A DNA stretch of 64,000 nt from Candidatus Kapaibacterium sp. (lineage in GTDB: Bacteria > Bacteroidota > Ignavibacteria > Kapaibacteriales > Kapaibacteriaceae). Positions 4,310 through 26,069 of this stretch are shown piece by piece. The position numbers and the translations under genes were made by a program. The notes beneath the pieces were generated by a model. The model did not search any database and was not told where the DNA came from. It worked only from the letters and a program-made list of their open reading frames with translations. Where the stretch lies: the NCBI GenBank assembly GCA_022842685.1, contig JALHPC010000006.1:26053-90052 (forward strand), written 5' to 3'. The stretch's first letter is position 1, and each line of letters begins with the position of its first letter.

Positions 4310-4323
4310 AGAAGGACCTTACC

Positions 4324-7933: not shown

Positions 7934-8050
7934 CTAAATTCTTTTTCATGGTGCGTTCATTCACGACGTAGCGTCATTCCATGCCCCATGAAACCAACGC
8001 CCCTTTCCCGATGTTTGCAGGCAGTTCATTACAAGAAACTAGGAGTGAGT

Positions 8051-9579: not shown

Positions 9580-10161
9580 TCAGTACGTTACTAGGACATA
9601 CTCTACACGAAGGTGTGGCGCTATACTCGTAATTCCGCGATAGCTGAGCGTATGCGTGCTTACTTCGGCACCAATGCCAAGCCGCTCTGTGAGCATCAGC
9701 GTGTACGCCAACCACGCGTGGACACCAAGTTCGAACTGCGTGCCTATGGACTTGTCGAGGCCGCCAACAGACGTTGAACTAACAAGCTGATACCCCCCTA
9801 CTCCCGCGCCAATCTGAAAGCCACGCGTTTGCATGGCAAAGGCAAGGTGGACGGGTATTCCCGTTAGAGACAACGAGACTGTCTGTCGGCCTTCGCCTGC
9901 CACCTCATCACGAGCCAACGTCACGAGACCACTAACAAGTCCGACGCTTAACAAGTGATTAGGGTGCCACAGCCCACGAGCAAGGAAGCTAGAGCCATTG
10001 CTTTGCAGACCTTCGACTCCTGGAGCACGTTGTTCACGAAAGTACGACCGTTGATACCCCCCGCTCACACTTAAGCGTAGGCGGTAGATGCCAGTACTAT
10101 CCTGTGCCGAGGTGCAACACCACGACGTGGCAAGCACGAGGACGCACATCATGAGTCTCAT
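9580..10161 (-). CDS. Small outer-membrane beta-barrel protein
   Basis: Signal peptide MRLMMCVLVLATSWCCTSAQD. Alternating hydrophobic beta-strand pattern. The ATG overlaps the upstream stop (ATGA). Confidence 0.4.
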   Translation of the reverse strand: MRLMMCVLVLATSWCCTSAQDSTGIYRLRLSVSGGYQRSYFREQRAPGVEGLQSNGSSFLARGLWHPNHLLSVGLVSGLVTLARDEVAGEGRQTVSLSLTGIPVHLAFAMQTRGFQIGAGVGGYQLVSSTSVGGLDKSIGTQFELGVHAWLAYTLMLTERLGIGAEVSTHTLSYRGITSIAPHLRVEYVLVTY

Positions 10162-11417
10162 TGACGTCCTCTCCGCGTGTAGTACTTCGCCGCAAGCAAC
10201 GTTGGGTAGTTTGTGAGAATACCATCGAACTCGCCGTCTGTCACAAACTCGTTCATAAACACCGGATCGTCGAGCGTCCACGTAAAGCACAGGCGTTGTT
10301 CACGCTGCATTGCTTGCACTTCGTCGAGCTGCAAGCCGGCCGTCCAGCGTGGTGCCCACACCTCTGCCTCCACATCGCGAGCCCAGCGCGTACTTAGCTC
10401 GCAGATAGCTTCGACCTGACTACGCAGAGGGTGCTCCATGTAGCTTCTAGCGATTTCGGCTGTTGGCAAACCCACAAGAAAACGCAGGTCGTTGCGCCCC
10501 TTAAGTCGCGCACGCTGTTGGGCGCCAACCATTGCGTGAAGGACGCTGTCGAGCACGGCACGCTGTTTGACGTCGACCCACACTAGGCCTAGCCGACGTT
10601 GTTCCATTGTCGCGTCGAGCACTTCGTGCAGCGTAGGAATACGCTCGCCATGCACGAGTCGAGCGGCAGCGCGGATCTGCTGTGCGGTATAGTTTTCAAC
10701 CAGGCCAAGTATGTAGGCCCCTTGCACCGTGCGTGGCGTAAAGCGCTCGTCGTGGAACACAATTGGCACTCCATCACGCGTACGAACAACGTCAATCTCG
10801 ACGGCGTTGCAGCCAAGTCGAGGTGCAAGCTGAATCATCTCGACGGTATTCTCGCTTACGCCAAGTCGGTCGGAATTGCGAGCCCCTCCACGATGGCCGA
10901 TTACCCAAAAGCCCCTCAGACGAGCACGTAGGTTGGTTCGACGGCGCATAACGAAGGGTCGAACGGAACCACCCGAGGCATCCGACACGGTTCCTCGCAA
11001 TACCAGATCTTTCCCGGGATTACTTCCACGGGCTAGAGCCGTTCCGCCTTCATCTGGCAACACCGTAAGCCGCATGATGCCAATATTTGTGCCCTGAGTA
11101 AATCTCCACGTGCCAACAATCTTTACTGTGTCTCCCAACAGTCCACCGCGGAGCGAACACCAGAGTGCATTCGCCTCGCCAAGCACGCTGCCCTCGTCGC
11201 CAGACCATAGCAGAGCCACAGAGTCGGCTGCTACTCCACCTCCATCTTCAACTCGATAGACGCCGCTAAGGTGTGCAAAGGCAGCCGTATCTAGTCGCTG
11301 TACTCCACGCAACTCGGATGCTAGGTCAAGCGCTACGTCATCGATGTCAACTAACTGCTGCACACATGAAGAGCACAACAGCACAGCCACCGCCACGATG
11401 ATTACTGCCTTGATCAA
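10158..11417 (-). CDS. Lipoprotein with C-terminal glycerophosphodiester phosphodiesterase (GDPD) domain
   Basis: Lipobox LLCSSC. GDPD catalytic motifs VIGHRGG...ENT...EIDV...DG.P.V.HD. Confidence 0.75.
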   Translation of the reverse strand: MIKAVIIVAVAVLLCSSCVQQLVDIDDVALDLASELRGVQRLDTAAFAHLSGVYRVEDGGGVAADSVALLWSGDEGSVLGEANALWCSLRGGLLGDTVKIVGTWRFTQGTNIGIMRLTVLPDEGGTALARGSNPGKDLVLRGTVSDASGGSVRPFVMRRRTNLRARLRGFWVIGHRGGARNSDRLGVSENTVEMIQLAPRLGCNAVEIDVVRTRDGVPIVFHDERFTPRTVQGAYILGLVENYTAQQIRAAARLVHGERIPTLHEVLDATMEQRRLGLVWVDVKQRAVLDSVLHAMVGAQQRARLKGRNDLRFLVGLPTAEIARSYMEHPLRSQVEAICELSTRWARDVEAEVWAPRWTAGLQLDEVQAMQREQRLCFTWTLDDPVFMNEFVTDGEFDGILTNYPTLLAAKYYTRRGRQ

Positions 11418-12130
11418 AAGATAAATCCAGCAAAAAGCTCAGGATAGAACAACACATCGTCGAACGTGTTGAAGGCCAACCACGCTTGATAGGGATTACG
11501 CGAGTAGTGCAGCGTGGCCCCCAAGCTTATCGCCGTCGTCCTCCAAAACGGCTGCTCGACGACGAGCGTTAGCGACCCGCCATTGAGTGTTCGTGCAGTT
11601 GAACTCACCTTGATGTCGTCGATGCGTTGCTGCTGAAACAGCACGACCTCGGCTTCGAGTTTTCCAGACACCGTAAAGTCATCAAAGCGAATACCAGCAG
11701 TGGCAAAGGGATAGGCAAACGCGCCCATAACGGTGGTGTTAAAACCCTGCAAGAAGCTAATATGGCCATACATAAACCCACCTTGAATACCGCCGCCAAG
11801 TGTAACACGCGTTAGCTCGGCCGACCACATCGGCCCCAAGGTAGCTAGGTTCGCAGCATAATTGCCGGTAATTCGCCCAACTAAACTAAGCTGCAGCGGC
11901 AGCCCTATCCTATATCGAATGTCCAAAGCCGGCGCCGGCACTTCAGATTCTACAAGGGGCTGCGGCAACAACGTGAGTGAAAGTCCTACCGACCCATTGA
12001 TGGTAAACATGTCGAGCGGGTCGGGAGCATGAACATAGTAATTCCGATAGGGCAACGTGTCCTGAGTGGAAGCACGCGACGCCTGCGCACCCGTCAGCAA
12101 AACCACAGCGATTACAAGCGGTAGTATCAC
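11414..12130 (-). CDS. Outer-membrane beta-barrel protein (porin-like)
   Basis: Signal peptide. Amphipathic beta-strands. C-terminal ...FAGFIF aromatic terminus typical of OMPs. 4-nt overlaps with both neighbours. Confidence 0.4.
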   Translation of the reverse strand: MILPLVIAVVLLTGAQASRASTQDTLPYRNYYVHAPDPLDMFTINGSVGLSLTLLPQPLVESEVPAPALDIRYRIGLPLQLSLVGRITGNYAANLATLGPMWSAELTRVTLGGGIQGGFMYGHISFLQGFNTTVMGAFAYPFATAGIRFDDFTVSGKLEAEVVLFQQQRIDDIKVSSTARTLNGGSLTLVVEQPFWRTTAISLGATLHYSRNPYQAWLAFNTFDDVLFYPELFAGFIF

Positions 12131-13152
12131 TCGGCAAGCTCCACGTACTGCCGCACGGTTCCACCTGCGGGCATTACCACGACATCGGCAATGTCATGAA
12201 CGGCGGATTGCAGTGGCACGGGCCGCATGGTAACACATAGAGCCGTGCCGATACGCTCAATCATCAAGTGGTGCAACGGTCGTATAGGTCCGCCACGGTA
12301 CTCGTCGGCATAGGTTGCCGCTTGCGCTGCTGCCACGGCTTGCCGTGGGCCACCGCCGCCCCCTGCAACGATAAACTGCCGGCCATCGATGTGGAAGCGC
12401 TCATATGTGTGTGCATGGCCGCTTAGCCAAAGGGTGCCTTTGGCAGACTGCACAAACGACGGTACAAAGTAGCGCTGAAGCACGACGTCGGGCGGAACTG
12501 CAGTGCTGTTCGTAAACGGCGGGTGGTGACCGCAAACAACCACGGCAACGATGCGACTATCTGCATCGAGTTCCTGCAGGGTTTTTACAAACCACCGCCG
12601 ATGTTGACGGCTACGAACGGGACCAATATCATCGAAGTTGGTATTAATAACAACGTATGCAACAGAGTCGATAACACGAACTACGCCGTCTTGATTGAAC
12701 CATGGCCAGCGCTGCATCACGTTTGCCATGGCCGCTTGATCGTTGCCGTAGTAGTCGTGGTTACCAAGTACTGGCAACACGCCAATGTTGGCAACGCGCA
12801 GGGGGGTCATGAGGTTGTCGAAGTAATGCCAGTCGGCACGACTAGCACCCCACCACACCATATCACCCAGGACAACGAGTGCGTCCGGCGCATCGGCCAT
12901 AATGCCAGCAATGATGTTTGGCCGATGCTTGTCGTTGTTTTCACGCCATGTTTCCACGGCGCCCGTTCGCTGAAGGTCGCCAACAATGGCCACGCGAGCA
13001 CGACGGTGGTGCAGATAGTTTGGGTCTGCAAACGACCGTATCGAGTCAGGTTCCTGAACCGAAGTACACGACAGTAGCAGCGATGTAGCGGCCATGACAG
13101 CCACGACGCCCAGAGATGCTACTCGTCCCATATATAGTCGAAGAGTATCCAC
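12127..13152 (-). CDS. Calcineurin-like metallophosphoesterase (lipoprotein)
   Basis: Motifs GDLQ, GDMVWWG, GNHD, CGHHP, GHAHTYER. Lipobox LLLSCTS. Confidence 0.8.
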   Translation of the reverse strand: MDTLRLYMGRVASLGVVAVMAATSLLLSCTSVQEPDSIRSFADPNYLHHRRARVAIVGDLQRTGAVETWRENNDKHRPNIIAGIMADAPDALVVLGDMVWWGASRADWHYFDNLMTPLRVANIGVLPVLGNHDYYGNDQAAMANVMQRWPWFNQDGVVRVIDSVAYVVINTNFDDIGPVRSRQHRRWFVKTLQELDADSRIVAVVVCGHHPPFTNSTAVPPDVVLQRYFVPSFVQSAKGTLWLSGHAHTYERFHIDGRQFIVAGGGGGPRQAVAAAQAATYADEYRGGPIRPLHHLMIERIGTALCVTMRPVPLQSAVHDIADVVVMPAGGTVRQYVELAE

Positions 13153-13793
13153 GAAAGCACAACAACGATGCCGGCATAGGCGGCGATAATGCCAAGGTTG
13201 GGGGCTACGTCGGCAAACGAAAAATCGGCCAACGCTTGCAGCACCGACGCAGTACCAGGCAGTACTATTGGCAAGATAACAGGAACGGCAAGCACGGGCA
13301 GTAGCAGGCCGCCGGCCTGCGTACGTGCCGCAATGGCACTCATAACAGTAAGCACGGCTGCTAGCGCTGCACTACCTACAACAACACTCGACATCAGCGC
13401 TAGCGGATTACCAGCAAAGACGTTGCCCACAACCAGTAGCAACAACACGTAGGCCAGCGCATTAGCAAGTGTTGCTTGTGCAACGTTTACCAGTAGCTTG
13501 CCAAACAGAACGGCCGATGCCGAAGTTGAAAGGCGCAGATATAACCACGTGCCACGCTCCTCCTCGCGGATAAAACCACGACCTAAGCCAACGTTCGCTG
13601 TAAATGTCATAACCACCCACAGCAACCCGGCAGCCATTGGCCGCGGCACTGCTTCGTCGGCAATACTAAACGCCACAAGCATTACCGTGGTAACAACGAA
13701 TACCACCAGCGACGTAAGGCCATAGCGTGTGCGCGCTTCGCTGCGAACGTCCTTGTCGATTACTGCCCATAGGCGCGTAAGTGCCCCATTCAT
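13119..13793 (-). CDS. CcmB-like ABC-2 permease (heme exporter protein B family)
   Basis: Alignable to CcmB. GLLWVVMTF...FIREEERGTWLYLRL matches IIWVAALLSS...FRDDLQDGSLEQLML. QAGGLLLPVLAVPVILPIVL matches RGGVLLSILVLPLTIPLLIF. Confidence 0.5.
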   Translation of the reverse strand: MNGALTRLWAVIDKDVRSEARTRYGLTSLVVFVVTTVMLVAFSIADEAVPRPMAAGLLWVVMTFTANVGLGRGFIREEERGTWLYLRLSTSASAVLFGKLLVNVAQATLANALAYVLLLLVVGNVFAGNPLALMSSVVVGSAALAAVLTVMSAIAARTQAGGLLLPVLAVPVILPIVLPGTASVLQALADFSFADVAPNLGIIAAYAGIVVVLSWILFDYIWDE

Positions 13794-13822: not shown

Positions 13823-15151
13823 TTAGATAACGCCGCGAGATTTCATCTCCACGTATCGCTGCACTGTTGCAAGGCCCATGTTCTCGGGCCGAGCATACAC
13901 GGCCATTATGCCGTGCTGACGCATTTGTGCTATCACCTCGCGCTTTTGCCATGCAAACATCTCGGCCGTTGTGCGCAGGTATACGTTGTCGGTGGTTGTA
14001 CTTGGCGTGGTACTAAGCTGCGTTACTTCGGTATTCTCGAACATCGTAACAACCACAACGTGTCTTGTAGCCAAGGCCCGCAACACTGGAAGGCGGCGCT
14101 GGAACGCGCCCATGGTTTCGATATTCGTATACACCATAAGCAGCGACCGCGTTGGCACTAGCCGCCGCAGAGATGCAAACATGACTTCGTCGTTGCTCTC
14201 AGAAAAATCGGTCGACACGGCATAAAGCGCCTCGTTAAGCATGGTCATCTGCCGCGAGCGCCTGTCGGCACGTACCGAGGTTGCCTGACGGCTGCCGTAG
14301 GCAAGCAGTCCGGCACGGTCGCCACGCACGAGCGCGGCCCGCGACAGCGCTAAGCCAGCATTCACGCTATAGTCCAGCAAGGTCATCCCCCCAAATGGTA
14401 GCTTCATCACGCGGCCAGTATCGATTACCGAATAGATGTGTTGCTCGCGTTCGTCCTGGTACAGGTTTACCATCATCTCGCCGGTGCGCGCCGTTGTCTT
14501 CCAATTCATGTTGCGCATATCGTCGCCCAACACATAGGGCTTCGCTGTTTCGTACTCCAGGGTTTGCCCAAGCTTGCGCAGACGCCGCTGACCTATGGGA
14601 ACGTTGGCATTGACGGCCGACAATTCGATGGCGCGCATTTGCATGTACGACGGATAGGTTTTTACGACGACTGCGGCGGGAATCGTAAACCGTCGTTCTA
14701 CGAGTCCCAACCATAGCGAGGCATAAATGTGAATGTCGCCAAAGGCATATTCACCGCGCTGGGTTGGTCGCACGGTATACGTTAGCACCGTGCGTTTGCC
14801 TGGCAAAACGGTGCCGTGCAGTATCAACCCTCGCTCTTGGAACTGTACTGGTAGCTCGTCGATAACGCTGCACATGAGCGCGGCATTGATGGTGGTTTCG
14901 ACATCGATCGACACGATGTTTGCATCGCCATTGCTAAGCCGTTGTGCTACCGTTCGCGAAGCCACTATGCCGCCTTTGCGGGACCACAGGGTTCCCCATT
15001 CGTAGGCAATGGCGCATGCCACAACTACCACGGCAATCCACGCAACGTGGAACAGTGCGGGAAGCACGATGCCAAGCACTGCCAAGCAGGCAATGCCAAG
15101 CACGGCCAGCATGGCGCGCGGCGTTAAGAACGATGATCGCAGTACGCTCAC
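13823..15151 (-). CDS. DUF58 domain protein (MoxR-associated, vWA-like)
   Basis: Two N-terminal TM helices followed by a DUF58-like region. Immediately downstream of a MoxR ATPase with 4-nt overlap. Confidence 0.55.
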   Translation of the reverse strand: MSVLRSSFLTPRAMLAVLGIACLAVLGIVLPALFHVAWIAVVVVACAIAYEWGTLWSRKGGIVASRTVAQRLSNGDANIVSIDVETTINAALMCSVIDELPVQFQERGLILHGTVLPGKRTVLTYTVRPTQRGEYAFGDIHIYASLWLGLVERRFTIPAAVVVKTYPSYMQMRAIELSAVNANVPIGQRRLRKLGQTLEYETAKPYVLGDDMRNMNWKTTARTGEMMVNLYQDEREQHIYSVIDTGRVMKLPFGGMTLLDYSVNAGLALSRAALVRGDRAGLLAYGSRQATSVRADRRSRQMTMLNEALYAVSTDFSESNDEVMFASLRRLVPTRSLLMVYTNIETMGAFQRRLPVLRALATRHVVVVTMFENTEVTQLSTTPSTTTDNVYLRTTAEMFAWQKREVIAQMRQHGIMAVYARPENMGLATVQRYVEMKSRGVI

Positions 15152-16119
15152 CGCGGAACGTCCACTCCAGCTACAATATCGGCAAGTACGGTGTCGACCG
15201 TCATGCCTTCCAGTTCACGCTCTGGTAGCAACTGTACGCGATGGCGCATCACGGGAATCACAACGCTCTTTACGTCGTCGGGCACAACGAAGTCACGCCC
15301 TTGCATAACCGCCATGGCTCTGGCCATGGCTAGGGTGCTAAGCGACGCTCGTGGCGACGCACCTAGGTAGAGTGCGTGGTGGGCACGCGTGTGATGTACA
15401 ATCGAGGCAATGTAGGAAAAGATGCCAGGTTCGACGGTTACGGTGCGTACAAGGCGGGCATAGCGCGTAATGTCGTCGTGCTTCAGCAGCGGCGTCACGC
15501 CGCTGCGTTCTGCCGGTGCCCCTTGTTCATGATGGCGGCGGATGATCTCGGTTTCTTCGGCAAGCGAAGGATAGTCGATAACGATTTTGACGATGAAGCG
15601 GTCGAGTTGGGCTTCGGGCAAACGGTAGGTTCCTTCTTGCTCGATGGGATTCATGGTGGCAAGAACCATGAAGGGCGACGGCATGGCGTGGCTGGTGCCA
15701 TCGGATGTGGTTTGGCGCTCTTCCATGACTTCAAACAGCGCGCTCTGCGTTTTGGCCGGCGAGCGGTTTATCTCATCGGTAAGCAACAGGTTGGCGAAGA
15801 CGGGCCCACGGCGGTACTCGAACTCGAGCGTCTTGGGATTGAAGATGTTGGTGCCCAAGATGTCGGCTGGCATCAAATCGGGCGTACACTGAATGCGACC
15901 AAACGAGCAGTCAACAAGCCGTGCCATGGTGCGCACAGCGAGCGTTTTTGCAACGCCGGGCGGTCCTTCAAGCAAGACGTGCCCTTCGGAGAGAAGGGCA
16001 GCTAACATAAGCTCGGTCATGCCATGCTGCCCCACAATCACCTGCCCTATTGCGGCACGCATGGCTGCAGCCACATCATGAAGGTGTTGTGCGTCGGTAG
16101 CTGATAGTCGTTGATTCAT
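15148..16119 (-). CDS. MoxR-family AAA+ ATPase
   Basis: VIVGQHGMTELMLAALLSEGHVLLEGPPGVAKT Walker A. LLTDEINRSPAKTQSALFEVMEE. The start was set at MNQRL, which forms an ATGA overlap with the upstream stop. Confidence 0.85.
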   Translation of the reverse strand: MNQRLSATDAQHLHDVAAAMRAAIGQVIVGQHGMTELMLAALLSEGHVLLEGPPGVAKTLAVRTMARLVDCSFGRIQCTPDLMPADILGTNIFNPKTLEFEYRRGPVFANLLLTDEINRSPAKTQSALFEVMEERQTTSDGTSHAMPSPFMVLATMNPIEQEGTYRLPEAQLDRFIVKIVIDYPSLAEETEIIRRHHEQGAPAERSGVTPLLKHDDITRYARLVRTVTVEPGIFSYIASIVHHTRAHHALYLGASPRASLSTLAMARAMAVMQGRDFVVPDDVKSVVIPVMRHRVQLLPERELEGMTVDTVLADIVAGVDVPR

Positions 16120-17354
16120 CGAGATGCCTTTTCGTAAAATGTGTCGATTATTGCCGACCGACGCAAGAGGTCGGTAGCCGACCACTCTGCATCAGTCCAT
16201 TGTTGTTCAACTCCGTCGACATCGCCGTAGCGCCGTACGAGGTCCAATACGTCGTGTATTAACTGGGCTTCGCATCCCGTTGCAGCTATGAGGCGGCGCT
16301 CGGTTGTACTATCGATGTTCACCAGAGGCACATGCAGTACCGAGGCGCAGAACCGTCGAAGGTGAACTATGCGCTGCCTCATTACGTAGGCGGGGTCGTG
16401 CGACGACTGCATCAAGTCGGCAACGGTTCGCACAAACTCGGAGGTCGTGTTCCGCACAGGTTCAAGAATAGGGATAGCACGCTGGCGGCGTCGGGCATTG
16501 GTACCAACGTACATAAGTCCCGATACGACTACTAGTACTAATGCAAGCTGGGCTGCGTGAGATTGCGACAACAGATCGCCAACGGTTGGTAGTTGTAGCG
16601 AGCCGTTGTGGTAACGATCCCACATGATGGGACCATCGGTGCGAGCAATCACGGGCATAAGGTACCTGGCAACAGCCGATGCCGTGTCATGAACAAACGC
16701 AAGGTTACTCATTAGCTCCGGCGAACTGACCACCGTGATCGATCCGAGACCCAAAGCGCGCCGTGCCGCAAGAACGAAGCGCGGCTGATCGGCTGATTGA
16801 TCAGTATTTTCAAGCGCCATCAACGTATCCCACTGCACTAGGTCCGAGCCCAGCGCGGTCGAATCAGTTCGCAGTTTGAACTGATAGCTGATGAAGTCCT
16901 CGACAATCAAGAACCGCTTTACTACGCTCCCGCTGTCATACACGCTTAGGGTGTCTTCGTCCCACATAAACGGCTGCCGCAAGTCGACGCCCAGACGTTT
17001 CTCGGTCGTGTCGTTTATCCACCGTGTGGCAATCACGACGTGTCCGCCACGGCGTGCGTAGGCAAAGAGACTATCAACTTCTTCATCCGCCGCCTGGAAT
17101 CTAGGAGCAACAATCCACCACTGCCCACGTGCTGGTGCACTGCGAATGGCAACATCCGAAGCACTGTCTACCATTGTTACGCGACCGTCTGTGATGGAGT
17201 CAAGCACATGCAATGCTATCCACGTTCCGTAGGGTTGTGTGCTTGTCGACGAAAACGTGCGCTTCCAGCTCGTTGGTTCGGGCTTGGAAATCTGCAGCAA
17301 GCCCAATACAACTACCAGCAACCCAACCACTACCCACCACGTGCGCGTAAGCAT
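16116..17354 (-). CDS. DUF4350-like protein (MoxR operon component)
   Basis: N-terminal TM. Position and size match DUF4350 in the conserved DUF4129-DUF4350-MoxR-DUF58 operons. Confidence 0.4.
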   Translation of the reverse strand: MLTRTWWVVVGLLVVVLGLLQISKPEPTSWKRTFSSTSTQPYGTWIALHVLDSITDGRVTMVDSASDVAIRSAPARGQWWIVAPRFQAADEEVDSLFAYARRGGHVVIATRWINDTTEKRLGVDLRQPFMWDEDTLSVYDSGSVVKRFLIVEDFISYQFKLRTDSTALGSDLVQWDTLMALENTDQSADQPRFVLAARRALGLGSITVVSSPELMSNLAFVHDTASAVARYLMPVIARTDGPIMWDRYHNGSLQLPTVGDLLSQSHAAQLALVLVVVSGLMYVGTNARRRQRAIPILEPVRNTTSEFVRTVADLMQSSHDPAYVMRQRIVHLRRFCASVLHVPLVNIDSTTERRLIAATGCEAQLIHDVLDLVRRYGDVDGVEQQWTDAEWSATDLLRRSAIIDTFYEKASR

Positions 17355-18037
17355 CAGGCGCGCCTCCTTGCATTCACTCGCAGCTGCGCAAAGCGAGGCG
17401 CAATACTCGCATAGTCGGGCGCTTCAATAGCCTGCTCGCCATACCACACGCGCTCAAACACCATCAATACATCCGAAAAGTTTTGTGCAAGGGGCGTCGA
17501 CAATAGTGCCCGGTAATACTCGCGGTTTGTTCGCTCGGCGCGCCACTCAATGTAGCCCGAATCCTGCAGCTCCCGTAGTAATTGCAGAAAATGATATCGT
17601 ACGGCAGATCGGTAGTCGCCAGCGGCTTCCGATTCGCCAATACGTCTGTCAAGGTCGTCTTCGGTTAAATCTTCAACCTTGCTCCCTCCGGCTACTACGG
17701 CGCGGGCACCGCCAACACGCCAAGGGGCTCCGCCCGAACGGCGCGACATGACGACGATGGCAACCACAAGAACCAGCATGCCGATAACGAAGGCAATGAC
17801 GCCTGTGTCGGTATCGACAACACTGCTAATCAGCGACTGAAAGAAATTGACGATGCGTTCAAGTATCTGCTCGAACAGTTCTCGTGACTGTACACGATGG
17901 GAATAGCTGAAGTTGGGGTCGTTCTCAAGCGTTGAAAGCCACGCGTGAGGAACTCGCGACGTGTCGGCCAGTGCCCCCTTCAGCCGAAATGGCAGGGCAG
18001 AAAACAGCAGTACGGCTACACCGAGAAAACGGCGCAT
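17354..18037 (-). CDS. DUF4129-like protein (MoxR operon component)
   Basis: Start set at MRRFLGVAVLLF (signal/TM). The ORF-track Arg-rich N-terminus is an out-of-frame read of a 9-bp DNA repeat. Confidence 0.4.
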   Translation of the reverse strand: MRRFLGVAVLLFSALPFRLKGALADTSRVPHAWLSTLENDPNFSYSHRVQSRELFEQILERIVNFFQSLISSVVDTDTGVIAFVIGMLVLVVAIVVMSRRSGGAPWRVGGARAVVAGGSKVEDLTEDDLDRRIGESEAAGDYRSAVRYHFLQLLRELQDSGYIEWRAERTNREYYRALLSTPLAQNFSDVLMVFERVWYGEQAIEAPDYASIAPRFAQLRVNARRRA

Positions 18038-18041
18038 GACG

Positions 18042-19103
18042 CTAGGAAGCGGACGAGTCCGACGGGGCCGACGAGTCCGACGAGTCCGACGAGTCCGACG
18101 GGGCCGACGGGGCCGACGGAGCCGACGGAGCCGTCTGTTCCGACGGGGCAAACGACGCAGCCATAGCAGCCAAGCTTAGACCCTGGCGATTCTCGACAAT
18201 CGAGCAATATGCAACGCCAACGCTAACGTACGTTATCGTGGACAGTAACTGTGCGCCTGTTAAGGAAAGCATCGATGTAACCACGCGTACAATTCCGAAA
18301 ATGCCAAGTGACTCATCGTTCGACTCGCGAACCATGGTATGAACCAGGCCAACAATGGAGTCTGGAATCGCAAATAAATACGAACATATGCCCACAAGAA
18401 GCGAGATAACGATGTAGTACCCCAACATCCACCACCAGTGTCCACGAATGGTGCTGAAGGCAATCTTGACCGATTCAAGAAACCCTGTCTCGACGAACAC
18501 CGATACAGGAAGCGTAAGCAATAGCGCAACGCTTGCGTAAACTGTGAGAGGCACTAACACAATGAAGCCAAGAAAGACAATACCAATGGCACTGAACGTG
18601 TCCAGCGATGACGCAAGGGCAACGATAGGCACTGCAACCACAGCAGTGGCCAAAATGAAGGCACCTACGAGAGACAGAATGACTGCGAACACCCTGCTGG
18701 TATGCAGTGCCTTCGCTTCGGCTAACTGCTCAACACTGGGCACCGCACCAGCGTCACGATAGGCTCGGAGCCACGTCATCACAATGGCAGCATGCCAGCC
18801 GGCAACCACGAACAGCAGTAGGTAACCGAGAGCTATTATGACGCCCGACAACGCCATCTCGTCGACTGCCACCTCACGTAGGGCTTGTCCGATGGCCTCG
18901 ATGTCGCCCGATAAAAACGCCCCGAAGCCAGTAATCGTGCCATAGGCAGTAAGGCCAGCTGCTACAAGGAGCCACGGCAATACATGTTTGATGACATAGA
19001 GAAATAGCGACGAATAGTGGTGGCGAACGATGTCGATGGTGGCCGACAACGTCTCGCTCCACGAGCGTGGTTTATTAAGCGATATGTAGTTAGGATCAGA
19101 CAT
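18042..19103 (-). CDS. Polytopic membrane protein with Ser/Asp/Ala-Pro low-complexity C-terminal tail
   Basis: Multiple TM helices. C-terminal APSAPSAPSAPSDSSDSSDSSAPSDSSAS encoded by GACGAGTCC/GACGGGGCC tandem 9-mers (18040-18130). Confidence 0.4.
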   Translation of the reverse strand: MSDPNYISLNKPRSWSETLSATIDIVRHHYSSLFLYVIKHVLPWLLVAAGLTAYGTITGFGAFLSGDIEAIGQALREVAVDEMALSGVIIALGYLLLFVVAGWHAAIVMTWLRAYRDAGAVPSVEQLAEAKALHTSRVFAVILSLVGAFILATAVVAVPIVALASSLDTFSAIGIVFLGFIVLVPLTVYASVALLLTLPVSVFVETGFLESVKIAFSTIRGHWWWMLGYYIVISLLVGICSYLFAIPDSIVGLVHTMVRESNDESLGIFGIVRVVTSMLSLTGAQLLSTITYVSVGVAYCSIVENRQGLSLAAMAASFAPSEQTAPSAPSAPSAPSDSSDSSDSSAPSDSSAS

Positions 19104-20058
19104 GACGACTCCGAGTTAGTTGTGCAGGAAGAGCAACGGCATACCACCACGTGACAGCAAGCGTCGCAACAATGATGACAAGATTAAGCACAAGTGGCAT
19201 GACTGGTGCATACCGCGTAACAAATGATTCGATAATAGCGGCAACAAGCACGAAGGGAACGATGCCGAGAGCTGTCATCACCACGGTACGTCCGGCATTC
19301 ACAAAGGCCTGCATACGAGTATAGGTACCAGGCATCATCATGGCCTTGGCTAGATGTATACCAGCTGCGCCGGCAATCACAAGTGTGCTTATCTCCATGG
19401 CTCCGTGTAGGTATACACCAAGAAGTGACGCACCTAACGCCCCATGAAGATAAAACAGTGTGTGAAACGACCCAAGCATGAAGCCATGATATAGGATGAT
19501 GACGGCGGGAACGACTATCGTAAGCAACCCCAGCACGGTGAGGCGCAACATCACAAAGAGATTGTTGAAAAAGATATAGGCAAACATGCCAACCGGTTGC
19601 ATGTCTTGATATACCCCCATTGGGTTGCCTTCTTTGATGTTGCGAATGGTCATGTCAACATAGCCGTGACCCAAAATTCCGCGTACAAAGTCCTCATCAA
19701 GTAGCGTTCCCACGACTCCAACAACTGTACTTACAGCTAGCAGCAGTGCGGCAACCAAGATGTCTGAGCGCAGTGCAGACATATGCATTGGCACCGTTTG
19801 TAGCCAAAATCGACGCAATGCAGCAATGCGATCCTTTCGCATGCGATACACCTCTTGATGCGCCTTAGCCGCAAGCTGATTCAAGTATCGCACAACGATG
19901 GTGTTCGGATATTGTGCTCGGGCAAACGCCAAGTCATCAACGATATCCATGTAGAGCATAGCTAAGCGTTCGGCGTCTCGCCCCTGCTTAAGCGCTATCT
20001 GCTCTTCGAAGGCCTGCCAGCGCTCGCTGCGGCGACGCACAAACTCCGACAGTCTCAT
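19096..20058 (-). CDS. Stage II sporulation protein M-like (DUF95) membrane protein
   Basis: About 6 TM. Architecture and context (RDD upstream, MoxR operon downstream) typical of the SpoIIM-like family. Confidence 0.45.
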   Translation of the reverse strand: MRLSEFVRRRSERWQAFEEQIALKQGRDAERLAMLYMDIVDDLAFARAQYPNTIVVRYLNQLAAKAHQEVYRMRKDRIAALRRFWLQTVPMHMSALRSDILVAALLLAVSTVVGVVGTLLDEDFVRGILGHGYVDMTIRNIKEGNPMGVYQDMQPVGMFAYIFFNNLFVMLRLTVLGLLTIVVPAVIILYHGFMLGSFHTLFYLHGALGASLLGVYLHGAMEISTLVIAGAAGIHLAKAMMMPGTYTRMQAFVNAGRTVVMTALGIVPFVLVAAIIESFVTRYAPVMPLVLNLVIIVATLAVTWWYAVALPAQLTRSRHV

Positions 20059-20103
20059 CGGTATTCTCCGGGCAAGATGGCACGATTGCGCTTCGCCATG
20101 GTA

Positions 20104-20850
20104 TTATCCTCGCAAGGCGGCATAGTCAGCAAGAACGGCCCGTAGAAACTCTTCGGCGCCCATTGACGTGTCTACGCCAAGTCGGCGTGCCACGCCGTCG
20201 CGCAGGGTCCACAACGCAGCCATACGCGCATCTACACGAATACTCGATCGGCCTGCCTCGTCGACGACATCTCGAATGGTCTGTATATCGGCATCACTCA
20301 GCCGGCTTACGCTTGGGAACACTAAGGCCCGCCTTTCCTCGGATGTCGTACATAGCGCAAGGACTTTCTCCAGCGATACAGGGGCTGGCTTGTTTACAAC
20401 AAGAGTACCAGCCACCATGTCGCCAAGACGTTGACTGCGCTTAGAAAACAGCACTACAACGAGTGCCATCGATCCAGTGGTTGCTAACACCTCTATCAAG
20501 AAGAACAGCCAGCGAATGGCTACATCTAAGAGCCCCAGTTGACGCCCATCCAAACGCACAACCCGAATGCCTACGCCCATCTTACCAAGCGTTTGCCCGC
20601 CTAGTAACAGCTCACTAACCATGGGATACATGATAGGTGCTATCGAAAGAGCAATGTACACCGCAATTCGCGCCTCACCTGGCAACATGGATAGCACGTC
20701 ATTCAGCATGGCCATCAACAAAAAAGAGCCGATATACAAAACGACTATCACCATTATATCGATGAGGAATGCACCTGCACGAGCAATAGCACTGGCAGGC
20801 TTTACATCAATATCAACATTGAGCGCCGTGGTTATGCCAGTGGTAATCAT
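20104..20850 (-). CDS. RDD family membrane protein
   Basis: RDD-family motif ...GGQTLGKMGVGIRVVRLDGRQ. 3 TM. Confidence 0.65.
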   Translation of the reverse strand: MITTGITTALNVDIDVKPASAIARAGAFLIDIMVIVVLYIGSFLLMAMLNDVLSMLPGEARIAVYIALSIAPIMYPMVSELLLGGQTLGKMGVGIRVVRLDGRQLGLLDVAIRWLFFLIEVLATTGSMALVVVLFSKRSQRLGDMVAGTLVVNKPAPVSLEKVLALCTTSEERRALVFPSVSRLSDADIQTIRDVVDEAGRSSIRVDARMAALWTLRDGVARRLGVDTSMGAEEFLRAVLADYAALRG

Positions 20851-20859
20851 GCTACATCC

Positions 20860-23226
20860 CTACCAGCGCCAGCGTATACCAAGGTGACCGCCAAGCTGCT
20901 CCAAACTCCAGTCGGCATCACTAACCATGCTGCCAAGCCACCGCGTGTACACCGTCTCTAACACAACATTGGTGCGAAACGAAATCGGATACGTAAACCC
21001 TACCCCGGCAAACACACCAACGTTGAAGGTATTCAAGCTTGACAGCGATTGCGGATCGACTCGGCGCTGCTGGGTACCGTCGGCAAACGTCACACTCGAT
21101 GGCTGTACTATCCGACGCTCCACAGTTACGGCACTGCCTAGCGAGGTCGATAGTTGCGCTCCGAAAATTCCGTACACACTCCTCGATGCATACAGCTCGG
21201 CAGCTGCCCCAATGGTTATCAAAGGGGCACCGACAGAAATATCGGTTCCCTCTTGGTAATCTACAAAGGTGCCGCTACCGGCGTCGAATACCGGTACAAC
21301 CAAGCTGTCGGGTGCCGTGAGCGTTCCACCAAGGGTTTGAACCGTTACACGGGCACCAACGCTAAGCCACGACGATAGCCGCTTGCCAATTACGCCGCCC
21401 AACCAGCCGCTCGTACCTTGGCCCGACGTAAACGGCGCTCCTGCAGATTGCACGTTGCCTGTAGCCAAGAAGTTCGGTCCGTGAAAACTGTGGTTAATCA
21501 CGGCATAGGCGCCGGCATACCACGCCTGGTCTTCGACGCATACAGCGTCGCGACCCTCGAACGTGAAATAGGCGTAGCGATCCGATTGTGCATCAAAGGC
21601 ATGACAAATGGTGATGAACGAGCTATTACCAGCAACGTCGATGGCTTCAAGCACGATGCGCCCCGACACGCCAGGAATGCTGGGGCGTACTCGCACGGTC
21701 GTCTGCGGTACTCCCTGCTCGATCTTCGGAATGGTTGCCTCAAGGGCGTAGGCATAGGCTACTCGTACCGACGCCATGCCGCGGTCGGTTGCACGATCGT
21801 CGCGAAACACTACGGTGTATTCGTCGCGGCGCGTGCCGCCCTCAACCAAGGGCGGCAAACTGTCGCGCCCCTGCCGGATTTCTTCGAACGACTGCCCCGA
21901 CATATTTCCGTAGGCGTCATACGCGTCACGGCCAAAGCCAAACCCATAGTTGTACAAACCAAAGGGGTCCGACCCCTTGATCGTATGCGTCCCAAACGGA
22001 ACCGCAACCTGTGCAAGACTGTAGCGGCTTTCGCCAAGACGCGTAAAGATCGTCGAGTCCAAACGGCGACCGTTCAAGCGAATATCTTTGATGCTCGACG
22101 TCGGCGTCACCACGTTGATATAGTGATGCCAGTCTCCGTCGATGGGCGTCGCAAAGCGATACTCGCGCAGGAACTGCTGCGTTGGGCTCACAAGAATCAT
22201 CATCGGATCGCCTACGCTGTCGCCATTCTTAAAGCCCTGCGCAAACTGCGCTACCAACACCGGCTTGTCGGCCGTTAACTGCACATGTCGCGTAAGATTA
22301 GCGCCCTCGTAAAACTCGCCCGGACGTAGCATGGCCACCAACCGCGAGTCTTCAAAAACCTTGGTGTCGACAGCAGATGCCAGCACTCGATAGTTATACT
22401 TTGTACGCTCCTTGATCATGCCCAGATAAAAGTGCTTACCCCACGACGACAACGGCGGCACCTGTTCGACCAAGTGATTACATGCCTCGATGCGCACTGG
22501 CACGTAGGCACATGTGTGGCCGCTGAACACGCTAATGGGCTTGTTCGAGGACACGAGCGAGCCCGTAACGTCCGATGCGCCAACAGACTCCCATTCGGCT
22601 TCGGCAGTATACACATCGCCTCGGCGCAGCTTTACGGTGTACGGCCTGTTGGGCAGTCGACCGCCCTTGATGAGGGCCGACGGCGTAATCGTAACTTCGG
22701 TGCCATCTTCGATGGCCACTATACTAAAGCCGCTTAGCAAGTCGGGAGCAAGCTTCGTATAACCCATCACACGATATTCAGTACCCAAGGCCTGAATAGG
22801 CAAGGCCATGTACGTGTCGGTGGTTTGATAGCGCGTGTTCAATCCGTACACGCTAATGTTCGAATCCGACGTAATGTGAATAGCCCGCCGCTCGGGCACA
22901 CCTACTGCAGATAGCATGACCGACGTAGGCATCAGCACGCTTACCACGCTGTTAGAACGCACTACGATGTTGGTATCCATACGAATACCCTCCACCTGAA
23001 TGCGCACACGTGCATCACTCGAACTTGTAATGAACAACTGCAACCGCCGCGTTTCGCCACCCTGACCTCGTGGCTGCGTCTTACTTTCGTCGCGAAAGTT
23101 CTTCATAAAACATATCCAGAACTCACGCCCTTCCGAGTTCTTGGGAAGTCGCTTACCGTCAGGGGGCACCGCCAACGCCGAAGCGGCGGCAAACACCCAA
23201 ACGATGTACACCAGTGCCCCCTTCAC
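20860..23226 (-). CDS. Large secreted protein with an N-terminal conserved Cys-motif domain (IgGFc-binding-N-like, tentative) and a C-terminal outer-membrane beta-barrel-like domain
   Basis: Shares a roughly 400-aa domain with the 27143..28477 paralog, including LGTEYRVMGYTKLAPDLLS and SGHTCAYVPVRIEACNHLVEQVPP. The C-terminal roughly 300 aa has an alternating beta-strand pattern ending in ...GIRWRW. The start was set at GTG (VKGALVYIVWVFAAASALA signal) abutting the upstream stop. Confidence 0.45.
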   Translation of the reverse strand: MKGALVYIVWVFAAASALAVPPDGKRLPKNSEGREFWICFMKNFRDESKTQPRGQGGETRRLQLFITSSSDARVRIQVEGIRMDTNIVVRSNSVVSVLMPTSVMLSAVGVPERRAIHITSDSNISVYGLNTRYQTTDTYMALPIQALGTEYRVMGYTKLAPDLLSGFSIVAIEDGTEVTITPSALIKGGRLPNRPYTVKLRRGDVYTAEAEWESVGASDVTGSLVSSNKPISVFSGHTCAYVPVRIEACNHLVEQVPPLSSWGKHFYLGMIKERTKYNYRVLASAVDTKVFEDSRLVAMLRPGEFYEGANLTRHVQLTADKPVLVAQFAQGFKNGDSVGDPMMILVSPTQQFLREYRFATPIDGDWHHYINVVTPTSSIKDIRLNGRRLDSTIFTRLGESRYSLAQVAVPFGTHTIKGSDPFGLYNYGFGFGRDAYDAYGNMSGQSFEEIRQGRDSLPPLVEGGTRRDEYTVVFRDDRATDRGMASVRVAYAYALEATIPKIEQGVPQTTVRVRPSIPGVSGRIVLEAIDVAGNSSFITICHAFDAQSDRYAYFTFEGRDAVCVEDQAWYAGAYAVINHSFHGPNFLATGNVQSAGAPFTSGQGTSGWLGGVIGKRLSSWLSVGARVTVQTLGGTLTAPDSLVVPVFDAGSGTFVDYQEGTDISVGAPLITIGAAAELYASRSVYGIFGAQLSTSLGSAVTVERRIVQPSSVTFADGTQQRRVDPQSLSSLNTFNVGVFAGVGFTYPISFRTNVVLETVYTRWLGSMVSDADWSLEQLGGHLGIRWRW

Positions 23227-24032
23227 TTCTGCACCACAAAGGTGTGATAGTGGGATGTGGTTGGCGATACAAGCTGGAAGATGTAGACACCGCTGGAAAG
23301 ACTCCACGTGTCGGGTACAAACTCCTTGGTATACGTCCCGGCCTGAAGCTCCTCGCTTGGTAGCTCGGCGTACAACTTGCCTGCAACATCACGGATGAAG
23401 TAGCGAACGGTGCCCGCTTGCGCGATAGAATATCGAAACTCTGTGCGACTAACGACCGGATTTGGTGCGTTGCCGCTGACGCCCTCGGTAAGCGTAGGAC
23501 GCGGACCGCCTTCGGATATCCGCACAAGACCACCCTGCAACTCGACATCAGAGCGCTCGACGCCGTTCACGAGGACACGAAGCGGTCGTAGCGTGCCCTC
23601 GACGTCCGTCGTGGGAAGACCAGTAATGGTTAACATGGCAACAACACCGTCAGCAACAGCTTGCGCCGTGTTGCACTCAATGCTAAACTCACCGTCGGTG
23701 CGGCCGTTCACGACCACATTGGTCGGATCGATGGCCGGACACAGCAGCGCGGCTGCTCCGCCACCAACGGCGCCAGACGGGCGAAACGTGCTGGGCGTAA
23801 ATCCGAATATTATGCGGACGGCAGCGTTTGCCGGAACGTTGAGTGTACCCGTAATTGGCACCGAAGCGCGCTCAAGCGCCCCAACAGTGGTTACAGGAGG
23901 TATACGTATGGCGTCGGCCGCCATGGCTATGGCATGGGCGGCTACGAGGATGGCTGCGGCGGTACTGCGAATCACTGGGACACTGATAGGTAGGAACGCA
24001 ATATACGGCGGGTAGAAGAGGCAGACGGCCAA
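23223..24032 (-). CDS. Secreted protein with T9SS C-terminal sorting domain
   Basis: The C-terminus ...GVYIFQLVSPTTSHYHTFVVQK resembles Por_Secre_tail. Signal-like segment TAAAILVAAHAIAMA. Confidence 0.5.
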   Translation of the reverse strand: MAVCLFYPPYIAFLPISVPVIRSTAAAILVAAHAIAMAADAIRIPPVTTVGALERASVPITGTLNVPANAAVRIIFGFTPSTFRPSGAVGGGAAALLCPAIDPTNVVVNGRTDGEFSIECNTAQAVADGVVAMLTITGLPTTDVEGTLRPLRVLVNGVERSDVELQGGLVRISEGGPRPTLTEGVSGNAPNPVVSRTEFRYSIAQAGTVRYFIRDVAGKLYAELPSEELQAGTYTKEFVPDTWSLSSGVYIFQLVSPTTSHYHTFVVQK

Positions 24033-26006: not shown

Positions 26007-26069
26007 GCAGTGGCAATGGTAATCGCGCCGGAACGAACGGCAAGTTGCGATATTTTTGTCGGTTCATCC

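Follow-up and report, generated by a model that had tools for sequence, protein, structure and literature searches.

A conserved seven-gene MoxR–DUF58 cluster of Candidatus Kapaibacterium predicted to encode a membrane-associated machine

On balance, we lean towards the reading that seven adjacent minus-strand genes, at positions 13823–20850 of the window (the whole 64,000-nt stretch of Candidatus Kapaibacterium DNA that was analysed), encode one inner-membrane-associated machine of two modules, in which a MoxR–DUF58 motor remodels or regulates a complex acting on the envelope. As initially annotated, seven open reading frames fill this interval exactly. Pfam searches placed six of the seven products above the curated cut-offs, reproducing the earlier family names RDD, SpoIIM, DUF4129, DUF4350, MoxR and DUF58, and the third product, described as a transmembrane (TM) protein without a named family and here called TM3, gave no Pfam match. 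The features are as follows:

20104..20850, minus strand: RDD-family membrane protein, 248 aa (PF06271, 69.1 bits, E 6.4e-19)
19096..20058, minus strand: SpoIIM-like polytopic membrane protein, 320 aa (PF01944, 105.7 bits, E 3.1e-30)
18042..19103, minus strand: TM3 membrane protein, 353 aa, six hydrophobic segments, no Pfam family
18052..18149, no strand: 9/18-nt tandem repeat within the 3' end of TM3 (TRF score 117)
17354..18037, minus strand: DUF4129 protein, 227 aa from the ATG at 18037 (PF13559, 39.2 bits, E 7.3e-10)
16116..17354, minus strand: DUF4350 protein, 412 aa (33.5 bits against a cut-off of 30.4)
15148..16119, minus strand: MoxR-family AAA+ ATPase, 323 aa from the ATG at 16119 (AAA_3, 203.4 bits, E 1.3e-60; AAA_lid_2, E 2.2e-22)
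13823..15151, minus strand: DUF58 protein, 442 aa (PF01882, 59.9 bits, E 2.6e-16)

Junctions were read off the sequence using the most likely start codon of each gene. Five of the six show an overlap or a gap of at most 8 nt: SpoIIM and TM3 overlap by 8 nt (ATGTCTGA), 4 nt separate TM3 from DUF4129, DUF4129 and DUF4350 overlap by 1 nt (TGATG), DUF4350 and MoxR by 4 nt (the ATGA stop/start overlap pointed out earlier, with the MoxR start at 16119), and MoxR and DUF58 by 4 nt (GTGA). The earlier claim that all spacings lie within 10 nt holds at these five and fails between RDD and SpoIIM, where the gap is 45 nt. A longer TTG-initiated DUF4129 ORF reaching 18151 was rejected as an artefact, since it is the 9/18-nt repeat that creates this extension. 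The cluster has close neighbours on the same strand: the end of an 815-aa IgGFc_binding gene lies 9 nt ahead of RDD, and 29 nt past DUF58 a CcmB-like gene begins. Promoter and terminator scans gave no signal above chance, and it is therefore from spacing alone that we infer co-transcription.

Domain search and gene-order comparison had been named as the analyses that could overturn the initial annotation; the former confirmed the families and the latter found the order conserved. Of 86 independent loci in Bacteroidota, Kapaibacteriota and Rhodothermota, 58 have all seven families in the window's order, the remainder being mostly on cut contigs, and across 63 loci no flanking family recurred in more than 10. 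Given this retention of order against such variable flanks, the seven-gene arrangement is far beyond chance. DUF4129 is present in 84 of the 86 loci and RDD in 71, in most of them in divergent orientation. The seven-gene operon first described stands as to families and order, though with RDD mostly divergent the usual unit among relatives is a six-gene operon plus RDD. From SpoIIM through DUF58, median spacings between the relatives' ORFs range from -20 to +9 nt. In a relative of 57% identity two genes are inserted directly after DUF58, placing the cluster's 3' boundary there. The closest named relatives of the window belong to Kapaibacteriota, not to Bacteroidota proper.

The wide recurrence of the gene order was also borne out at greater distance, with conservation spanning the FCB group (Bacteroidota and allied phyla), Alpha- and Gammaproteobacteria and Actinomycetota. 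The families are clustered in the same order in Catenovulum (Gammaproteobacteria) and in permuted order in Nocardia (Actinomycetota), while Rhizobium and Paracoccus carry plasmid-borne copies in the order DUF805-DUF4129-DUF4350-MoxR-DUF58-SpoIIM-RDD, with the DUF805 protein of Alphaproteobacteria in place of TM3. The same annotations appear in a published table for Mycobacterium tuberculosis Rv3689–Rv3695, the moxR2 region (Rv3691, DUF4350; Rv3692, MoxR; Rv3693, DUF58; Rv3694c, SpoIIM; Rv3695, RDD; plus a membrane protein; PMC8191103). This family set, with counterparts in M. chelonae, M. abscessus and Nocardia, matches that of the window, and the Nocardia locus likewise includes DUF4129. Identity is however low (25% for SpoIIM), the first membrane protein matches TM3 weakly (E 0.003), and in Nocardia the RDD/SpoIIM pair follows DUF58, with RDD on the opposite strand, whereas in the window the pair precedes TM3. 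In the searchable literature we found no characterisation of the Rv3689–Rv3695 cluster and, as initially stated, no function assigned to the gene set of the window, nor any experiment that ties one of these genes to a phenotype. In Arthrobacter and Bernardetia, RDD and SpoIIM occur without the MoxR module nearby, which indicates that the two modules are separable. One Bernardetia record contains a 617-aa SpoIIM::TM3 fusion (TM3 part, E 6e-14), which could be an assembly indel; no such fusion was found among the 86 FCB loci.

Topology was predicted from hydropathy and the positive-inside rule. MoxR is predicted to be cytoplasmic; its Walker A (GPPGxAKT) and Walker B (DE) motifs are conserved and intact, and among solved structures 2R44 comes closest (E 6.6e-74). 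DUF58 has an N-terminal hydrophobic segment (residues 7–57) long enough for a two-helix hairpin, followed by a predicted cytoplasmic region with a vWA-like domain. In all phyla compared this domain carries D244-x-G-[R/K/H] in place of DxSxS, a degenerate MIDAS lacking the canonical metal-binding motif. The DUF4129 protein, with hydrophobic segments at 5–23 and 72–103, is predicted to comprise an N-terminal hydrophobic segment, about 50 periplasmic residues, one TM segment and a cytoplasmic DUF4129 domain, and conserves R143, R147, T170-N171, Y174 and W198-Y199-G200. For DUF4350, an N-terminal TM segment, a periplasmic GIFT/GATase1-like domain, a second TM segment and a cytoplasmic helical domain are predicted, with an invariant RRQRxIP motif adjoining the membrane; the periplasmic domain resembles IFT52 and OST48 (GIFT-like). 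Since basic residues follow the hydrophobic segments of DUF58, DUF4129 and DUF4350 alike, the DUF4129 domain, the DUF4350 C-terminus and the DUF58 vWA-like domain are predicted to lie on the MoxR side.

The initial annotation saw a predicted biochemical activity only in MoxR with its DUF58 partner, but the three remaining membrane proteins offer functional hints as well. RDD (conserved residues including R24, D31, E80, D101, R141 and D144) has a C-terminal extension of about 100 aa beyond its last hydrophobic segment, and for one member of its family, from Halobacillus andaensis, Na+(Li+,K+)/H+ antiport has been reported (PMC5996927). The SpoIIM-like protein begins with a soluble helical domain, its orthologues being recorded as DUF8413 plus SpoIIM, and W14, P90, F159, N166, H218-G-x-x-E222, R248 and E277 are invariant in four phyla. 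N166, H218, E222 and E277 lie in or next to hydrophobic stretches, pointing to an invariant polar site (N-N...N...HGxxE...E) within the membrane. TM3 ends in a low-complexity Ser/Pro/Asp-rich tail, encoded by the tandem repeat, whose length differs in the 96%-identical relative P0008. Its predicted fold resembles those of CTL1/PNS1 (CTL/SLC44) and CysZ, at 9–10% sequence identity and without a Pfam match; compared with the six hydrophobic segments of TM3, CTL1 has further helices, along with an extracellular domain that is missing from PNS1.

These hints could also describe a regulated transporter or ion-handling system, in which a small solute or ion would be carried by RDD, the SpoIIM-like protein and TM3, with MoxR–DUF58 serving only to assemble or gate them. 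The RDD antiporter and the SpoIIM-like charged and polar residues favour this reading, which we nevertheless consider unlikely. Foldseek did not confirm the TM3 fold match (TM-scores against CTL/CysZ of 0.30–0.36; no match at E<=0.001), TM3 has just four well-conserved residues, unusual for a substrate site, and in Alphaproteobacteria a DUF805 protein takes its place. Moreover, CTL1 and PNS1 show no choline transport and the CTL fold was recently argued to be incompatible with transport (PMC13160678).

The nearest published statement concerns archaea, where Makarova, Galperin and Koonin (2015) predicted a 'secretion or membrane remodeling complex' for arCOG01314 (DUF4350), MoxR and vWA proteins; similarity of DUF4350 to GldG and the adjacency of SpoIIM homologues to vWA and COG0714 genes in bacteria were reported there too (PMC5898192). 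The likeness of the window's DUF4350 to IFT52 and OST48 agrees with the GldG similarity. As in the window, the archaeal DUF4350, MoxR and vWA genes are adjacent, and DUF4350 has the same architecture, an outward flavodoxin-like, GldG-like domain with a C-terminal TM segment. The archaeal vWA protein is described as secreted, whereas a cytoplasmic orientation is predicted for the window's DUF58, and the window adds RDD, SpoIIM, TM3 and DUF4129. Together with the large IgGFc_binding protein encoded immediately upstream in the window and its Kapaibacteriota relatives, the archaeal prediction and the DUF4350 likenesses would suit a dedicated secretion system, with MoxR powering the passage of a protein or polymer, by way of the membrane proteins, out of the cell or onto its surface. 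We regard this as quite improbable: the IgGFc_binding flank is restricted to one lineage, the flanks of the 63 loci yielded no conserved cargo candidate, the Ig-like and S-layer proteins of the archaeal sets are absent, and the cluster has no channel-forming or outer-membrane component. In addition, the established roles of MoxR ATPases lie in remodelling and maturation, not in translocation.

SpoIIM of Bacillus subtilis recruits the peptidoglycan hydrolases SpoIID and SpoIIP. By analogy, the SpoIIM-like protein, a family member by Pfam, might position wall enzymes at the division site as a cell-wall remodelling scaffold whose assembly MoxR controls. A related operon, P. aeruginosa PA2875-PA2874-tgpA, we take to encode MoxR, DUF58 and a transglutaminase that ends in a DUF4129 domain, so that DUF4129 would recur as a partner of MoxR–DUF58; B. 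subtilis yeaC-yeaD-yebA presumably likewise encodes MoxR, DUF58 and then a membrane protein ending in DUF4129. Such operons have a transglutaminase core, absent from the window cluster by Pfam, and lack DUF4350, SpoIIM, TM3 and RDD, and the window's DUF4129 is instead on a small single-span protein. The Pseudomonas genes are co-transcribed, and the cell wall has been suggested as the target of TgpA (PMC3507681). Also in favour of a scaffold are the part that SpoIIM plays in the DMP complex (summarised in PMC5898192) and a co-IP with Rv0954, a divisome protein, that recovered both Rv3694c and Rv3695 (PMC8093794). The co-IP list is rich in abundant membrane proteins, however, and non-sporulating carriers must use SpoIIM differently (PMC5898192). 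With no peptidoglycan hydrolase gene conserved nearby in the 63 loci, and with Rhizobium plasmids carrying the cluster, which is unusual for core division machinery, we find a wall scaffold decidedly doubtful.

The Bat (Bacteroides aerotolerance) operon of Bacteroidota also begins with MoxR and DUF58 (PMC11834572). Next in Bat come two vWA membrane proteins, BatA and BatB, and a TPR protein, BatC; Pfam detected none of the three in the window cluster, and RDD, SpoIIM, DUF4129 and DUF4350 do not belong to Bat; the cluster is a separate MoxR system. Kaur et al. 2020 reportedly described conflict systems of MoxR-vWA type. An anti-phage system of this kind, to which a secondary bpMoxR match (40.6 bits), a weak PADLOC match of RDD to the C-terminal part of PD-T4-6 (E 7e-6) and MoxR-vWA pairs in threat sensing in Actinomycetales (bioRxiv 10.64898/2026.09.08.750141) might point, is very improbable indeed, given the far higher AAA_3 score, the absence of PADLOC matches for six of the seven proteins and of any beta-propeller, kinase, FHA or effector domain by Pfam, and the single, fixed-order cluster per locus in lineage-varying housekeeping contexts rather than defence islands.

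In the two-module machine that we favour, the motor/adaptor module would consist of MoxR, an AAA+ ATPase expected to form a ring, the hairpin-anchored DUF58 protein, the single-span DUF4129 protein and the DUF4350 protein, and the membrane core of the SpoIIM-like protein, TM3 and RDD. Beyond conservation and spacing, the Bernardetia fusion record, the Rv0954 co-IP and the PA2875-PA2874-tgpA operon count in favour of this machine, while the occurrence of RDD and SpoIIM away from the MoxR module and the substitution of DUF805 for TM3 count against it. DUF58 would recruit MoxR, which would spend ATP remodelling the cytoplasmic domains of DUF4129 and DUF4350. The membrane core would thereby be assembled, gated or regulated and coupled to the periplasmic domain of DUF4350, the only sizeable one of the machine, presumably non-catalytic and of a kind proposed elsewhere to bind sugars. 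We infer, as the initial annotation did, that the products assemble or remodel a membrane complex, which fits the predicted topology. The likely task would be the biogenesis or maintenance of the cell envelope, whether glycan, lipid or wall. The cluster belongs to an already recognised gene neighbourhood, for which the predicted GIFT-like domain of DUF4350, the degenerate MIDAS of DUF58 and the putative intramembrane polar site of the SpoIIM-like protein are new details.

In the ORF listing of the window, seven consecutive ORFs, all on the minus strand, span positions 13823-20850. The initial annotation had named families for these products, and six of the seven were found to pass the curated cut-offs of Pfam, as listed here in gene order. 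The third product, a membrane protein referred to as TM3, has no match in Pfam or NCBIfam. Pfam records DUF4129 and DUF4350 in orthologues too.

Pfam matches of the products of the seven-gene cluster
RDD: PF06271, 69.1 bits, above the cut-off
SpoIIM: PF01944, 105.7 bits against a cut-off of 26.9
DUF4129: PF13559, 39.2 bits against a cut-off of 24.8
DUF4350: PF14258, 33.5 bits against a cut-off of 30.4, a narrow margin
MoxR, AAA_3: 203.4 bits against a cut-off of 27
MoxR, AAA_lid_2: 79 bits against a cut-off of 22.7
DUF58: PF01882, 59.9 bits against a cut-off of 23.4

The junctions had been described as all being of 10 nt or less, which holds for five of the six, the exception being RDD to SpoIIM at 45 nt. 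As read from the sequence, the five are an 8-nt overlap (SpoIIM/TM3), a 4-nt gap (TM3 to DUF4129), a 1-nt overlap (DUF4129/DUF4350) and two 4-nt overlaps, ATGA at DUF4350/MoxR and GTGA at MoxR/DUF58, where the DUF58 start lies over the MoxR stop codon. The start codons of DUF4129 and MoxR were corrected to the ATGs at 18037 and 16119, respectively. A 9/18-nt tandem repeat at 18052-18149 is the coding sequence of the Ser/Pro/Asp-rich C-terminal tail of TM3, whose length is not the same in P0008, a 96%-identical relative. A longer DUF4129 ORF from the TTG at 18151 was rejected as a spurious Arg-rich extension, being an out-of-frame reading of this repeat. Base composition is uniform over the cluster region. 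Scans for sigma-70 promoters and intrinsic terminators gave no sites above shuffled sequence. At the stop codon of DUF58 there is a weak hairpin, which was discounted as evidence.

A scan at one genome per species yielded 246 confirmed relatives, 80 of which were taken for locus comparison. ORFs were called in 86 loci from the FCB group (Bacteroidota and allied phyla) and then searched with profiles made from the window proteins. The gene order was indeed found to be conserved, with the complete set of seven arranged as RDD, SpoIIM, TM3, DUF4129, DUF4350, MoxR, DUF58 in 58 of the 86 loci and the remainder mostly representing cut contigs. Median ORF spacings from SpoIIM through DUF58 in the relatives range from -20 to +9 nt, and MoxR and DUF58 are neighbours in 68 of the 86 loci, the others being cut contigs. 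The closest named relatives are Kapaibacteriota MAGs (61-65% identity for MoxR, about 46% for DUF58), which places the window in a Kapaibacteriota-like lineage and not in Bacteroidota proper; a search with a 41-sequence DUF4350 profile gave, among the matches listed, close Bacteroidota relatives only. A relative whose DUF4350 protein is 57% identical to that of the window agrees with it in all seven genes, their order and their strand, with two unrelated genes between DUF58 and the CcmB-like gene that follows; this insertion marks the end of the cluster on the 3' side, after DUF58. At 22-26% DUF4350 identity the gene set still occurs, in unrelated surroundings and with RDD divergently transcribed. 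No further flanking family recurs with the cluster in more than 10 of 63 loci, and the conserved unit is therefore exactly the seven families.

The genes on either side of the cluster are as follows.

Genes flanking the cluster in the window
7415-9550, plus strand, long ORF with a phytoene desaturase-like C-terminal part, by sequence appearance alone
10158-11417, minus strand, GDPD glycerophosphodiester phosphodiesterase
11414-12130, minus strand, 238-aa protein
12127-13152, minus strand, metallophosphatase
13119-13793, minus strand, CcmB-like ABC-2 permease
20860-23307, minus strand, IgGFc_binding protein (PF17517) of 815 aa, ending 9 nt before the RDD start codon
24042-26006, minus strand, DUF4397 protein, from the syntenic gene of a relative's locus (L001)
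25809-27146, plus strand, peptide chain release factor 1 (RF-1), from the syntenic L001 gene

Both immediate neighbours are on the strand of the cluster, the IgGFc_binding gene adjoining RDD with its 9-nt gap and the CcmB-like gene adjoining DUF58 with a gap of 29 nt. As cluster members they were rejected and left outside the unit, since they are common only to Kapaibacteriota loci. Apart from the window, only Kapaibacteriota MAGs and the 57%-identity relative keep the IgGFc_binding gene; its position next to RDD is thus lineage-specific synteny, and it may be co-transcribed with the cluster. Downstream of DUF58 there is a co-directional run of minus-strand genes (10158-13793), all four of which have syntenic counterparts in the 57%-identity relative. 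For relatives of TM3 there is a weak match to PF10110, the membrane domain of glycerophosphodiester phosphodiesterases, which is probably coincidental. The genes at 7415-9550 and 24042-27146 appear to be ordinary housekeeping or surface-protein surroundings.

More distant phyla were reached by tblastn of the SpoIIM-like protein against plasmid records, which gave 53 records, 46 of them from Rhizobium. Rhizobium binae and Paracoccus aminovorans carry DUF805 - DUF4129 - DUF4350 - MoxR - DUF58 - SpoIIM - RDD on a single strand, with every junction an overlap or a gap of a few nucleotides and with DUF4129 and DUF4350 matches slightly under the Pfam thresholds. The DUF805 gene encodes a 146-aa membrane protein (4206-4649 in the Rhizobium locus L087, 4251-4691 in the Paracoccus locus L088) and precedes DUF4129, the position held by TM3 in FCB loci, so the small polytopic partner seems to be exchangeable. 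The gammaproteobacterium Catenovulum adriaticum has RDD - SpoIIM - a 515-aa protein - DUF4350 - MoxR - DUF58, ordered as in the window. Homology to TM3 was examined for the polytopic N-terminal half of this protein, which would make it a TM3-DUF4129 fusion; hhalign gave a probability of 0.1, the idea was rejected, and this half is accordingly a TM3 analogue by position only. In Nocardia farcinica, a weak TM3-like ORF, DUF4129, DUF4350 (weak), MoxR and DUF58 are followed by a divergent RDD/SpoIIM pair. In one open frame of this locus (L089, NZ_LN868939.1, 4190-5851), a DUF4129 domain covers aa 231-316, and aa 470-526 resemble the C-terminal cytoplasmic part of DUF4350 (E 1e-3); between two TMs lies a short Pro-rich loop alone. 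The product may, on weak grounds, be a fused variant lacking the GIFT (GldG/IFT52/OST48-type) domain, the calling of ORFs being uncertain in high-GC DNA. For M. chelonae, a published table equates genes with Rv3689, Rv3691 (DUF4350), Rv3692 (MoxR), Rv3693 (DUF58), Rv3694c (SpoIIM) and Rv3695 (RDD) (PMC8191103).

Records from Arthrobacter and Bernardetia have RDD and SpoIIM with no MoxR module nearby. In the Bernardetia sp. plasmid (L092, NZ_CP147018.1, 9001-10854), residues 1-319 of one 617-aa CDS are SpoIIM-like and residues 332-615 are homologous to TM3 (E 6e-14), with RDD divergent upstream. The fusion may be genuine or may come from an assembly indel, and it is a single case, as no gene fusions were found among the 86 FCB loci. 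The occurrence of RDD and SpoIIM away from the MoxR module, taken with the SpoIIM::TM3 fusion, suggests two modules, RDD/SpoIIM/TM3 and DUF4129/DUF4350/MoxR/DUF58.

Analysis of the individual products shows that both Walker motifs of MoxR are intact, with Walker A (G52-P-P-G-x-A-K58-T59) and Walker B (D115-E116) kept in at least 85% of 83 sequences. Among solved structures the nearest to MoxR is 2R44 (E 6.6e-74), and searching the PDB by sequence gave no match for DUF58, the SpoIIM-like protein or DUF4350. The hydrophobic segment at the N-terminus of DUF58 could, by its length, form a two-helix hairpin, and the basic residues flanking it lead to a predicted cytoplasmic location for the remainder. 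Its vWA-like domain reads D244-T-G-R-V in the window in place of the DxSxS of the metal-binding MIDAS site, and D-x-G-[R/K/H] is present in every phylum compared (FCB, Rhizobium, Paracoccus, Nocardia and Catenovulum). A conserved Asp is lacking after the fourth strand, and the domain falls short of a functional MIDAS, which comprises DxSxS and the downstream Thr and Asp metal ligands. The DUF4129 protein (227 aa, DUF4129 being its sole Pfam match) consists of an N-terminal hydrophobic segment, a predicted periplasmic stretch of approximately 50 residues, one TM and the DUF4129 domain. The predicted periplasmic domain of DUF4350 has the non-catalytic GATase1-like fold of GIFT domains, resembling IFT52-N and OST48. 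Residues N166, H218-G-x-x-E222, R248 and E277 of the SpoIIM-like protein are invariant in FCB, Alpha- and Gammaproteobacteria and Actinomycetota; the invariance of these polar residues argues for a putative binding or catalytic site as opposed to a passive scaffold. R24, D31, D101 and D144 of RDD are kept in at least 85% of 72 sequences, and TM3 is tentatively given a CTL/CysZ-like fold.

The cluster was also compared with known systems having MoxR, DUF58, DUF4350 or SpoIIM components. In the Bat operon, MoxR and DUF58 are followed by the BatA/BatB vWA membrane proteins and a TPR protein; Bat membership was rejected, as Pfam gave no BatA/BatB vWA or TPR family in the seven products and three flanking proteins. 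Unlike the TgpA/YebA-type MoxR-DUF58-transglutaminase operons, the window cluster is without a transglutaminase core, and this assignment was also rejected. The adjacency of DUF4350, MoxR and vWA in the archaeal arCOG01314 system is present here also (PMC5898192). Its Ig-like/S-layer membrane proteins (COG4743/pfam07760) are absent from the seven products and conserved flanks, so the cluster is not the full archaeal set. The neighbourhood was partly noted in 2015 by the same work (PMC5898192) and has been annotated in mycobacteria, and the present cluster is an orthologue of it. In the sporulation DMP engulfment complex, SpoIIM works with the peptidoglycan hydrolases SpoIID and SpoIIP; within the neighbourhood alone, no hydrolase family is conserved in the cluster flanks of 63 loci. 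The phyla found to carry the cluster are not known to form endospores. MoxR-vWA-beta-propeller ternary conflict systems, reportedly described by Kaur et al. in 2020, were also considered. Beside MoxR and vWA, such systems have a sensor of the beta-propeller type and a domain with an effector or signalling role. MoxR has a secondary bpMoxR match (40.6 bits); Pfam gave no propeller, kinase, FHA or toxin family among the cluster products, and this candidate was rejected. PADLOC matched no defence system. RDD (20104-20850) weakly matches the C-terminal part of its PD-T4-6 model (E 7e-6), which is read as shared-domain similarity; membership of a known defence system was rejected, as the match is confined to the RDD domain.

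The analysis shows the gene content, the tight packing, the conservation, the status of the motifs and the fold resemblance, and their best-supported reading is a single machine associated with the inner membrane, for which we infer the topology, the physical association of the parts and the substrate. In such a machine, DUF58 would recruit MoxR at the cytoplasmic face, and MoxR would remodel the cytoplasmic domains of DUF4129 and DUF4350, through which the RDD/SpoIIM/TM3 core would be assembled, gated or regulated. The GIFT-like domain of DUF4350 would be the sole large periplasmic element and the likely contact with envelope material. Related genes are co-transcribed in P. aeruginosa (PA2875-PA2874-tgpA; PMC3507681), and a co-IP of a divisome protein recovered both Rv3694c and Rv3695 (PMC8093794). 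The same seven genes could instead encode a secretion system, a regulated transporter or a wall-remodelling scaffold, each a rival to the single machine outlined here. A conflict system is the least likely, given that PADLOC offers a domain-level RDD match only and effector domains are absent.

The seven families occur together in at least four bacterial phyla, and carriers include a major pathogen (Rv3689-Rv3695), human gut Bacteroidota and plant symbionts. The searchable literature holds no paper giving a phenotype or function for the seven-family cluster, and Rv3689-Rv3695 do not occur in the supplements of one M. tuberculosis RB-TnSeq paper. The proposal that this order recurs widely with no assigned function is in agreement with these results, and the cluster is a genuine conserved unknown. 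The window copy does not represent a new type of system but adds a further example, from a Kapaibacteriota-like lineage, with nothing surprising about it. The present analysis adds the precise limits of the conserved unit, its breadth across phyla and the two-module view, together with the degenerate MIDAS of DUF58, the polar site of the SpoIIM-like protein and the tentative CTL/CysZ-like fold of TM3.

A unit conserved so broadly usually serves a basic envelope function, and this one brings together SpoIIM outside sporulation, RDD and the tentative CTL/CysZ-like fold. Its clean boundary and fixed gene set give genetics, co-purification and cryo-EM a clearly delimited target. A more far-reaching, and in our estimation unlikely, possibility is that the cluster represents a new and very widespread class of ATP-driven inner-membrane machine, found from M. 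tuberculosis to Bacteroidota and Rhizobium. Its core would include a SpoIIM-type protein having an intramembrane catalytic or ligand-binding site, and a bacterial equivalent of the CTL/SLC44 (PNS1) fold of eukaryotes. Control would lie with a MoxR-DUF58 motor whose vWA-like domain is of a non-metal kind, and a periplasmic GIFT domain of the OST48 kind would couple the core to envelope glycans or lipids. If this were true, the operon would provide a bacterial genetic handle on CTL function and on SpoIIM outside sporulation.
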